From the NCBI RefSeq assembly GCF_056746865.1, contig NZ_CM163382.1: a DNA stretch of 64,000 bases; one strand, 5' to 3'. Positions within the stretch are counted from its first letter, which is position 1. Each line of letters opens with the position of its first letter. The notes below the pieces were generated by a model. The model had not been told where the DNA came from. It was given only the letters and a program-made list of their open reading frames with translations, and did no database searches. Of the stretch, positions 4,660-15,087 are shown piece after piece. The position numbers and the translations under genes were made by a program.

Positions 4660-5631
4660 CCCTGCCAGTGGCGTTCGAGTAATGCGTTCCTCGCCGTTAA
4701 TGACTTTTGGACCACGGACATGAACCGTGTCGCCATCAAAGGCTTCAACGACGGCGTGGTCGGTTAACTCCACATGGTTTTCAATTATCACCGCACCTGT
4801 AATACGGCTCTCACCTTGTATGACAACGTGCTCGTCGAGCAGAATCGGTCCGCCACATACCACGGCATTTCCGCCAATCAAGACATGATGTTTTAACACA
4901 CAATTACCTTCCACAATGGCATATTCCGCCACCTGCGAACTGTAATGAATCGTCGGAATGGCATCTTCTTCTATGCCAGCTTTCACCTGCGCGTGACCGT
5001 AGACTTTAGCGCAATCGCATAGCCAGACGTTGTTCTCTTCATTACCTTCAACGCTGGCAAAATCAAAAACTTCGGCGCGATGTTCAATAAAAGCATACCG
5101 GACGACGGCATCGCCATAAATTTGTGCCTGGTGGACAATACGCGAGGCGCTAACCCTTGCGCGATCATAAATTTGGAGCAGGAGTTGATGGTCGGGCGTT
5201 AAGCCTTGTGCGGCGACGATCATAGAATGTTGATCAATTAAGGCGTGACCAAATATTCTACATTGCCCGTAAACTAATGAGTCATGAATGGTGACACTGT
5301 CACTTATATATGCACCCTGGCTGATTTCACTATTATCGATCCAGACGTTATCCGTTGCGTAAACCTCTCCCCACAGCACGCTGGTGCCGGTGATACGCGT
5401 ATTACCGGAAATCACCGTTCCGCCGAACGCAATAGCATTCTGGTCGTAAATCCAGCAATTTCCTTCCTGTGCTAACACCGTTTCGCGATCGATCCAGCCG
5501 CCAGCGGTTCCTGCTATCACATCGTTAAAATCGCTAATGGCGATAATCTGCCGTAATAACACATTTTTTTTAGTGCCATCTTCCTGATAACTAAAGGCTC
5601 GCTGTTCTTCACTTAGACGATATTTGCGCAT
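4651..5631 (-). CDS. ydcK: Hexapeptide-repeat (left-handed beta-helix) protein YdcK
   Basis: 326-aa ORF, ATG start, repeated G-x-A/V-x-I patterns; convergent with rimL. Confidence 0.85.
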
Positions 5632-5754: not shown

Positions 5755-6747
5755 ATGCAGAGCGATAAAGTGCTCAATTTGCCGGCAGGCTACTTTGGTA
5801 TTGTGTTGGGGACGATAGGGATGGGATTTGCCTGGCGCTATGCCAGCCAGGTTTGGCAGGTCAGCCACTGGTTAGGGGATGGGCTAGTGATTCTGGCGAT
5901 GATCATCTGGGGATTATTGACTAGCGCATTTATTACCCGACTCATACGCTTTCCGCATAGCGTGCTGGCGGAAGTTCGCCATCCAGTGATGAGCAGTTTT
6001 GTGAGTTTGTTTCCGGCAACGACGATGCTGGTGGCGATTGGTTTTGTTCCGTGGTTTCGCCCACTGGCGGTGTGCCTGTTCAGTTTTGGTGTCGTGGTTC
6101 AGTTGGCTTATGCCGCCTGGCAAACTGCGGGATTATGGCGCGGATCTCATCCTGAAGAAGCTACCACGCCTGGACTGTATCTGCCGACAGTTGCCAACAA
6201 CTTTATCAGCGCAATGGCCTGTGGTGCATTGGGCTACACCGACGCCGGTCTGGTGTTTTTAGGCGCAGGCGTTTTCTCATGGTTAAGCCTGGAACCGGTG
6301 ATCTTGCAGCGACTGCGCAGTTCGGGAGAATTACCCACGGCGCTGCGGACATCACTCGGCATTCAGCTCGCTCCTGCGCTGGTGGCCTGTAGTGCCTGGC
6401 TGAGCGTCAACGGCGGCGAGGGTGACACGCTGGCGAAAATGCTTTTCGGTTATGGGCTGCTGCAACTGCTGTTTATGCTACGTCTGATGCCATGGTATCT
6501 CTCCCAGCCATTTAATGCTTCATTCTGGAGTTTCTCGTTCGGCGTATCTGCACTGGCAACCACCGGTTTGCATCTGGGGAGTGGCAGCGATAATGGATTT
6601 TTCCATACGCTGGCGGTGCCGCTGTTTATCTTTACCAATTTTATAATTGCAATACTGCTCATCCGTACTTTCGCGCTTCTGATGCAGGGGAAATTGTTAA
6701 TCAGAACCGAGCGCGCCGTTTTAATGAAAGCTGAGGACAAAGAATGA
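5755..6747 (+). CDS. tehA: Tellurite resistance protein TehA (TDT-family membrane transporter)
   Basis: Internal ATG at 5755 gives [31 protein letters not shown]..., 330 aa; the track ORF (5647) is a 5' over-extension. Confidence 0.9.
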
Positions 6748-7337
6748 TCATTCGTGACGAAAACTATTTTACTGATAAGTATGAATTAACCCGCACACAC
6801 TCTGAAGTACTGGAAGCGGTGAAAGTGGTTAAACCCGGTAAAACGCTGGATCTGGGCTGTGGCAATGGTCGTAACAGTCTTTACCTGGCAGCCAATGGTT
6901 ATGAAGTTGACGCATGGGATAAAAATGCCATGAGTATCGCCAACGTCGAGCGCATTAAATCCATTGAAAATCTGGATAATTTACACACTCGGGTCGTTGA
7001 TCTGAATAACCTTACGTTTGATGGGCAATACGATTTTATTCTTTCGACTGTGGTGCTGATGTTCCTTGAGGCTAAAACCATCCCAGGGCTGATTGCCAAT
7101 ATGCAACGTTGCACTAAACCTGGCGGTTACAACCTGATTGTGGCGGCGATGGATACCGCTGATTATCCATGTACCGTCGGCTTCCCGTTTGCCTTCAAAG
7201 AGGGAGAATTACGTCGATATTACGAAGGCTGGGAGATGGTGAAATACAATGAAGACGTCGGCGAGCTGCACCGCACCGACGCCAACGGTAATCGTATTAA
7301 ACTGCGTTTCGCCACGATGCTGGCACGTAAAAAATGA
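6744..7337 (+). CDS. tehB: Tellurite methyltransferase TehB (SAM-dependent)
   Basis: 197-aa ORF overlapping the tehA stop by 4 nt; [18 protein letters not shown]-binding motif. Confidence 0.9.
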
Positions 7338-7638
7338 CCCGCTAAGAACAAGGCGCGTGATAATTCCCCCGCTGAGATGGTTTACTGTTCTTCTTTTCGG
7401 TAAGCATAATTTTTATCGAATGGATGTGAAATTAATCACAGTAGTCGAAGTTTTTTAGCAGCTTAACTTACTGAAATTTAACTACTGATGATTGACTTAG
7501 CCCCTTTTTCGGCATTGACTATGTCGTCTGAAAAGGGGCTGAAAAATTTATTTTCACCAACACTTTTTTTGCCACAACACGAAGCGGCGCTTTTTGCTAT
7601 AACTTAGAAAGTAATATAATCATCTCAGGAAACTATTC

Positions 7639-8307
7639 ATGCGTACCACATCAATTGCGAAAGTTGCAGCTTTATGCGGCTTGTTGGCTCTGTCTGGTTG
7701 TGCCTCTAAAATCACCCAGCCAGATAAATATTCTGGTTTTTTAAACAATTACTCTGATTTAAAAGAAACAACCTCAGCAACAGGTAAACCTGTTTTACGT
7801 TGGGTAGACCCGAGTTTTGATCAAAGCAAATATGACAGCATCGTCTGGAACCCAGTCACTTATTATCCGGTACCGAAACCATCTACCCAGGTAGGGCAGA
7901 AAGTTCTGGATAAAATTTTGAGTTATACCAACACCGAAATGAAAGAAGCGATTGCGCAGCGTAAACCACTGGTTACCACCGCTGGGCCGCGTAGTCTGAT
8001 TTTCCGTGGGGCCATTACCGGTGTTGATACCAGCAAAGAAGGGCTGCAATTCTATGAAGTGGTTCCTGTCGCATTAGTGGTCGCGGGGACGCAAATGGCG
8101 ACGGGCCACCGTACCATGGATACTCGCCTCTATTTTGAAGGTGAGCTGATTGATGCAGCTACTAATAAACCGGTTATCAAAGTCGTTCGTCAGGGCGAAG
8201 GTAAAGACCTGAATAACGAAAGTACGCCAATGGCTTTCGAAAATATTAAACAAGTTATTGATGACATGGCGACCGATGCCACTATGTTTGACGTTAACAA
8301 AAAGTAA
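7639..8307 (+). CDS. ydcL: Putative lipoprotein YdcL
   Basis: 222-aa ORF; signal peptide with lipobox (LALSGC). Confidence 0.85.
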   Translation: MRTTSIAKVAALCGLLALSGCASKITQPDKYSGFLNNYSDLKETTSATGKPVLRWVDPSFDQSKYDSIVWNPVTYYPVPKPSTQVGQKVLDKILSYTNTEMKEAIAQRKPLVTTAGPRSLIFRGAITGVDTSKEGLQFYEVVPVALVVAGTQMATGHRTMDTRLYFEGELIDAATNKPVIKVVRQGEGKDLNNESTPMAFENIKQVIDDMATDATMFDVNKK

Positions 8308-8315
8308 TTCCAGCT

Positions 8316-8341
8316 GCGCCATCGTAAGATGGCGCTTTTTA
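8316..8341. terminator. Bidirectional rho-independent terminator between ydcL and ydcO
   Basis: gcgccatc-gtaa-gatggcgc stem-loop followed by TTTTT. Confidence 0.7.
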
Positions 8342-9514: not shown

Positions 9515-9605
9515 AGTCACCTCGTGCGTTATAACGTACAGGTACCGTAGCATTTGTCCGTTATAACGCACAAGTGATAAACTTCCGTTTTGCCGGAGGA
9601 GTCGC

Positions 9606-14843: not shown

Positions 14844-15087
14844 TAGCGTTTAATTAAATTCCTCTCAGGTTGGGTAATATGAATTTCGAATAGCAGTCAT
14901 ATTTCCTAACTCCTTGTCTATACTCCAGAAGATAACCTTACAGACGGCATAATGCGCGGTAGCTCACAACCTGATTAAATTTTCTCAGGGGCGAAGGTGT
15001 GCCTGCTAGCCGCCGTCTATGGTTAAACAAGGAGATATTTTTACGGCACGGCGGCTGAACAATTAATTACGACAGGAGTAAGACTTT

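Follow-up and report, generated by a model that had tools for sequence, protein, structure and literature searches.

In the window analysed here, a 64-kb stretch of Escherichia coli DNA, tehB is followed on the same strand by ydcL. The spacer between the two genes is 100% identical to that of strain 118UI, and 5411 of 5426 complete E. coli genomes carry the same spacer once, with nothing annotated across it. A repeat search of the window located two arms of 10 nt each within the spacer, AGCCCCTTTT at 7499-7508 and AAAAGGGGCT at 7531-7540, which are 100% complementary and have 22 nt between them. This bears out the perfect 10-bp inverted repeat that had been described in the initial annotation, as well as its placement some 160 nt from tehB and 100 nt from ydcL, the exact distances being 161 nt and 98 nt. 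The K-12 copy (NC_000913.3 1502317-1502358) is identical. The features of the locus are collected in Table 1. On the far side of ydcL, the window strain is without IS609 (insQ/tnpB and a tnpA pseudogene), which K-12 carries between ydcL and ydcO, and ydcO here comes directly after ydcL (window 8308-8341 versus L001 4662-6001).

Table 1. Coordinates of the tehB-ydcL locus in the window, with predicted RNA and promoter features.
Feature	Position	Strand	Description
tehB CDS	6744..7337	+	hairpin sits in the 3' untranslated region of the tehB transcription unit
Extended hairpin	7497..7542	+	two more foot pairs (UU...GA); 19 pairs in total, -24.4 kcal/mol
Core hairpin	7499..7540	+	outer stem of 10 bp (7499-7508 with 7531-7540), then U7509-G7530
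Core hairpin, interior		+	inner stem 7510-7515 with 7521-7526; apical loop UGACU 7516-7520; 3-nt bulge 7527-7529
3' flank GAAAAATTTATTTTC	7541..7555	+	A-rich first, U-rich only 6-7 nt later; no U-tract adjoining the stem; G7541A is the most frequent E. coli variant
Predicted ydcL promoter core TGCTATAAC	7595..7603	+	extended -10, C at -13, sigma-S type
ydcL CDS (DUF3313 lipoprotein)	7639..8307	+	downstream unit; ATG at 7639

Six distinct perfect 10-bp inverted repeats with loops of 3-30 nt (14 overlapping matches) occur in the 64-kb window, and first-order Markov simulations of the window gave a chance expectation of 2.4 +/- 2.2 matches. The 10-bp repeat alone is therefore not beyond chance: it is about the yield expected of 64 kb, and its reality rests on the other evidence described below. 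A longer example, a perfect 13-bp inverted repeat at 9524-9571 (GTGCGTTATAACG ... CGTTATAACGCAC, again with arms 22 nt apart), is situated in the control region of the divergent ydcO and sutR; both of its arms contain the 10-bp palindrome CGTTATAACG. Its position suggests that it may be a candidate operator pair for the adjacent regulator SutR.

The 22 nt between the arms had been described as an unusually large loop. In RNA this loop is not open. On the + strand its interior pairs, CGGCAU with AUGUCG, so that only a 5-nt apical loop and a 3-nt bulge are left. The predicted hairpin is 17-19 bp long, with a folding energy of -22 to -24 kcal/mol and a GC-rich foot (GCCCC/GGGGC). The core hairpin accounts for -22.1 kcal/mol (z = -5.3), a stability equalled by none of 200 shuffled sequences, and the pair probabilities of the helix are 0.85-1.0 when it is folded in a 400-nt context. 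The fold of the - strand is less stable, at -15.9 kcal/mol.

The region 7490-7550 is identical to the window in 2997 of 5404 E. coli genomes, and the hairpin is found at a median of one place per genome and a maximum of two (5404-5411 E. coli genomes). Five E. coli strains carrying point variants were compared in detail. The recurrent change in these strains is G7541A, with an extra A at this position in an O157 strain, and falls just outside the stem; one of the five has a change inside the 10-bp stem and one has a change at the U.G junction pair. Across Escherichia as a whole the sequence varies in ways that retain the fold. In one locus (L007) a C-to-U change gives a U.G pair, in Escherichia sp. 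MOD1-EC7003 (L004) a stem of 11-13 bp is kept through a register shift, and E. albertii and the cryptic clades have a rebuilt inner helix, UGAC/GUCA. All seven Escherichia sequences (7/7) share the loop core CATTGACTAT without change, which goes beyond what a pure stability role requires. Two strains have disrupted the element. In CT01 (L003, 1733-2500) an IS1 element replaces window positions 7361-7578, with the loss of a CRP site, the hairpin and an upstream box but with the -10 kept, while FCI1 (L089) carries a 36-nt duplication inside the hairpin. The hairpin is therefore dispensable. It is present in strains both with and without a nearby IS609.

Between the tehB stop codon and the hairpin lies a segment of about 127 nt (7340-7466) that is Escherichia-specific and single-copy. 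It is absent from Salmonella and Citrobacter and is deleted in L004, where the hairpin, with its register-shifted stem, is found about 35 nt from the tehB stop. The presence of the hairpin without the segment indicates that the hairpin belongs to the end of tehB and not to the segment, and it is this Escherichia-specific segment that puts the hairpin of the window as far as 161 nt from the stop codon. Close matches to the window are found in far fewer E. coli genomes over the segment than over the hairpin region. The segment also contains, at 7425-7440, the sequence TGTGAAATTAATCACA, a predicted CRP site with perfect consensus half-sites (TGTGA-N6-TCACA). This is the sole such site in the 64-kb window, where 0.06 would be expected, and every Escherichia locus with the segment retains it, the 6-nt spacer being variable. 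No convincing -10 was found on the + strand near this site at class I or class II distance. On the - strand the promoter-like sequence TTCACA-16-TATGCT (7430-7403) could drive an RNA antisense to the 3' end of tehB.

The comparison was extended to 80 ydcL loci, one per species, across the Enterobacteriaceae. A stable hairpin follows directly on the upstream gene in nearly all 80 loci and in every genus sampled, its end falling about 95-110 nt short of the ydcL ATG. The upstream gene is tehB in some genera and an unrelated gene in Enterobacter, Leclercia, Raoultella and others. A U-run usually accompanies the hairpin in genera other than Escherichia, Salmonella and Citrobacter, giving U-tract scores of 2-5 and d scores of up to +57, and canonical terminators stand at the same position in Enterobacter, Leclercia, Klebsiella/Raoultella, Yokenella and Trabulsiella. 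Escherichia, Salmonella and Citrobacter retain the hairpin but have no U-run after it (U-tract score at most 1.6, d score negative), and the Salmonella and Citrobacter hairpins are followed by A-rich sequence.

The E. coli hairpin aligns with the stem-loop that follows tehB in Salmonella and Citrobacter through the common sequence TTCGGCATT. The arm sequences of these two genera are completely different from those of E. coli and yet the pairing is retained, partly by G.U pairs. RNAalifold gave a consensus helix of nine pairs, in which compensatory double changes were observed in every pair (9/9). On this consensus structure pairing is found in 91.6% of the cells; sliding the 3' partner by 1-3 columns lowers this to 28-53%, and the covariation score of 0.72 compares with 0.10-0.29 for the slid partner and was reached by none of 500 shuffles. 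Moreover, the + strand has 26 G.U cells to the 6 of the - strand, which indicates that the selected molecule is the tehB-sense RNA, and not duplex DNA or an antisense RNA. The fold of the + strand is also more stable than that of the - strand in most orthologues. Structure and sequence are both conserved, so that the lack of conservation which the initial annotation had named as a refutation does not apply.

The sequences around the hairpin were examined for the hallmarks of a terminator. A stable, GC-rich stem-loop on the sense strand, 161 nt 3' of the tehB stop, is present as in an intrinsic terminator; what is missing is the U-rich tract, about 7-8 nt long, that would directly adjoin the stem on its 3' side. 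The tail of the stem is GAAAAAUUUAUUUUC, with a U-tract (T) score of 0.49 and a d'Aubenton-Carafa d score of -56.7, and a terminator scan returned no sites. The absence of a U-tract means that the E. coli hairpin is not a canonical intrinsic terminator. A terminator for the - strand was also considered and rejected, there being no U-run 3' of the stem in that direction either and a weaker fold. The earlier suggestion of a tehAB terminator thus holds in part: this is a conserved, covarying tehB-sense RNA located where other Enterobacteriaceae place a terminator, but it has no U-tract. The stem-loop has neither U-rich sequence on its 3' side nor an A-tract on its 5' side, which is the arrangement of the class of gene-end stem-loops defined by Dar and Sorek. 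The 60 nt from 7540 to 7599 contain 14 C and 8 G, and the C-rich stretch overlaps a conserved box of the ydcL promoter.

Published maps of transcript ends were also consulted. Neither tehB nor ydcL appears in the supplementary text of Adams 2021, TERMITe 2025 or SMRT-Cappable-seq 2018, and these gave no mapped 3' end; the locus tags are likewise absent from the TERMITe 2025 and SMRT-Cappable-seq 2018 supplements, and the K-12 coordinates 15021-15025 were not found in the Adams 2021 supplements. The supplementary text of the same three datasets gave no mapped start site for the tehB-ydcL spacer. Expression of tehAB is weak. A search of the literature for tehB together with bicyclomycin or terminator found nothing relevant.

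Downstream of the hairpin, every one of the 80 ydcL loci has the motif TTGCTAT some 42-48 nt ahead of its ATG, and the ydcL unit is predicted to start about 55 nt 3' of the hairpin, with the transcription start expected near 7610. ydcL is known to respond to Rob, its expression being lower in a rob mutant, and to stationary phase or RpoS. A genomic SELEX experiment with the RpoS holoenzyme gave a peak in the tehB/ydcL spacer (PMC5493296), which by coordinate conversion from U00096.2 falls at about 7618 of the window. Together, the conserved extended -10 and the RpoS SELEX peak indicate that ydcL has its own promoter, beginning just after the hairpin. Further upstream of ydcL, at 7564-7578, is the box TTTTTTTGCCACAAC; TTTTTGTCACAAC or a similar sequence is present in many genera, Salmonella and Citrobacter not being among them. 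Inspection of this conserved box by eye gave no convincing match to a marbox.

Several other identities for the element were tried and set aside. A small open reading frame at 7488-7607 (39 aa) has no Shine-Dalgarno sequence before 7488; its start codon is lost in two Escherichia species, L006 (ACG) and L008 (ATA), and its frame is shifted in O157:H7. A known RNA family is not indicated, in that the four matches to Rfam 15 in the window at E <= 10 (E 0.48-8.1) are to unrelated families and lie far below the gathering threshold, and six orthologous loci gave no Rfam match at that threshold. Neither is the hairpin the end of a dispersed repeat or mobile element, since the hairpin and the neighbouring 127-nt segment are single-copy and the hairpin is independent of the presence of IS609. 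Finally, a promoter in the loop, with TTGACT as its -35, has no usable -10 at 16-18 nt on either strand.

Of the interpretations that give the hairpin some other role, the nearest to the evidence is that of a weak or decaying intrinsic terminator, at which the hairpin would pause and partly release RNA polymerase without Rho, with help from the UUUAUUUU run that lies 6-7 nt beyond the stem. The GC-rich foot of the stem and its location where other genera have their canonical terminators are both consistent with this, and transitional cases of the kind are discussed by Dar and Sorek (PMC6061677). The lack of any U-tract at the stem, however, left the scan with nothing to report and the scores at T 0.5 and d -57, as against d values of up to +57 in canonical orthologues, and A-rich sequence also follows the Salmonella and Citrobacter versions, so that a residual terminator of this type is considered unlikely. 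We regard as somewhat less probable still the idea that the hairpin is a relic without current function, a former terminator hairpin drifting neutrally. The loss of the U-tract, the IS1 found in place of 7361-7578 in CT01 and the 36-nt duplication inside the hairpin in FCI1 would all fit with such a relic; compensatory changes in all nine consensus pairs across three genera argue instead for selection on pairing, and a stem that is near-invariant in more than 5000 E. coli genomes argues that this selection continues.

A similarly low probability is given to the proposal that transcription starts within the 127-nt segment, near the CRP-type site at 7425-7440, producing either a long ydcL leader, in which the hairpin would serve as a leader or attenuator element, or a small RNA. 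The segment does hold a promoter-like sequence on the + strand (TTTACT-18-CATAAT, 7381-7410) and a perfect CRP consensus conserved in Escherichia, and the loop sequence is invariant within the genus. The hairpin, though, is older than the segment, being present in Salmonella, in Citrobacter and in L004, which has no segment; the -10 reads CATATT in K-12 and most lineages; and none of the three datasets gives a mapped start site in its supplement. There is in addition no relevant Rfam match, no U-tail of the type found in Hfq-dependent small RNAs and no convincing promoter in front, and the small-RNA option of the initial annotation is accordingly unsupported. Its further option of a protein-binding palindrome, in the form of a DNA site at which a dimeric regulator would bind some 90 bp before the start of ydcL, is disfavoured and appears very improbable. 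In its favour, the E. coli arms match perfectly and precede a promoter that is regulated (Rob; stationary phase or RpoS), and there are two copies of ATTGACT at an interval of 23 nt (7492-7498 and 7515-7521). Against this, the arms of Salmonella and Citrobacter are unrelated in sequence although their pairing is retained, partly by G.U; the 26 G.U cells would be mismatches in a DNA symmetry; the C-to-T change of L007 yields U.G; L004 keeps its stem by a register shift; and a spacing of 22 nt between 10-bp half-sites is atypical. The half-site sequence is not conserved across orthologous promoters, as would be expected of an operator, so that any such site would have to be Escherichia-specific. 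Equally doubtful is a conditional, factor-dependent gate, in which Rho or a 3'-hairpin-binding protein, acting via the invariant loop CAUUGACUAU, would set the level of read-through into ydcL from tehAB and the CRP-site segment.

The explanation that we favour, and hold with modest confidence to be the probable one, is that the repeat is a U-less 3'-end stem-loop of the tehAB mRNA, which protects or defines the end of the message and bounds the ydcL unit. In this model the repeat would encode a stem-loop in the 3' untranslated region of the tehAB transcript, on the + strand, and would be the Escherichia form of the hairpin that closes the unit upstream of ydcL throughout the Enterobacteriaceae. 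RNA polymerase is probably not released by the hairpin alone, because there is no U-tract. Transcription would most likely end diffusely further downstream, through Rho or leaky termination, or else continue, with the RNA being cleaved afterwards. We infer that 3'-to-5' exonucleases may then trim the message back to the foot of the hairpin, placing the putative 3' end at about 7541-7545 (K-12 1502359-1502363). The hairpin would from that point define and protect the 3' end of the tehAB mRNA and mark the boundary with the ydcL promoter.

With regard to Rho, the distance from the hairpin to the translated ydcL is only about 100 nt, which leaves little room for Rho action. The downstream C-rich stretch CACCAACAC...GCCACAACAC overlaps a box whose conservation extends even to the genera with canonical terminators, and may thus belong to a promoter instead of serving as a rut site.

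The hairpin itself is real, conserved and ordinary: an unannotated example of a U-less gene-end stem-loop. It would supply the missing 3' boundary element of the tehAB unit in E. coli, and beyond annotation its importance is small. It does provide a clean comparative case of a gene-end hairpin that is kept by compensatory evolution while the U-tract is present or absent by genus. This pattern of presence and absence is what easy switching between intrinsic and Rho-dependent termination would predict.

Stable stem-loops without U's have been described at the steady-state 3' ends of Rho-dependent E. coli transcripts (Dar and Sorek, 2018; PMC6061677). Members of this class have terminator-like energies, protect transcripts from PNPase and RNase II, and show a mild enrichment of C over G downstream (PMC6061677). 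The tehB hairpin resembles them in being a sense-strand stem-loop after a gene that is as stable as intrinsic terminators are and has neither a U-rich tail nor an upstream A-tract. A mild excess of C over G also follows it (14 C and 8 G in 7540-7599), but in a stretch that may be a promoter element. It differs in that its stem is unusually long (17-19 bp, with a bulge) and lies 161 nt after the stop codon. The same authors proposed that evolution switches easily between the two types of terminator by the gain or loss of U's (PMC6061677), and the U-tract carried by orthologues of the tehB hairpin in other genera is in keeping with this. With a canonical intrinsic terminator the hairpin shares a GC-rich stem at the end of a transcription unit, at the very position of the true terminators of other genera; what it does not share is the 7-8 nt U-tract next to the stem, and for this reason it fails both the terminator scan and the d'Aubenton-Carafa score. 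Like the REP/BIME elements, it is an imperfect palindrome between genes and could shield the upstream mRNA from 3' exonucleases. It lacks the REP consensus, however, and occupies a median of one place per E. coli genome (maximum two), and, unlike these dispersed elements, the tehB hairpin is orthologous by position across genera.
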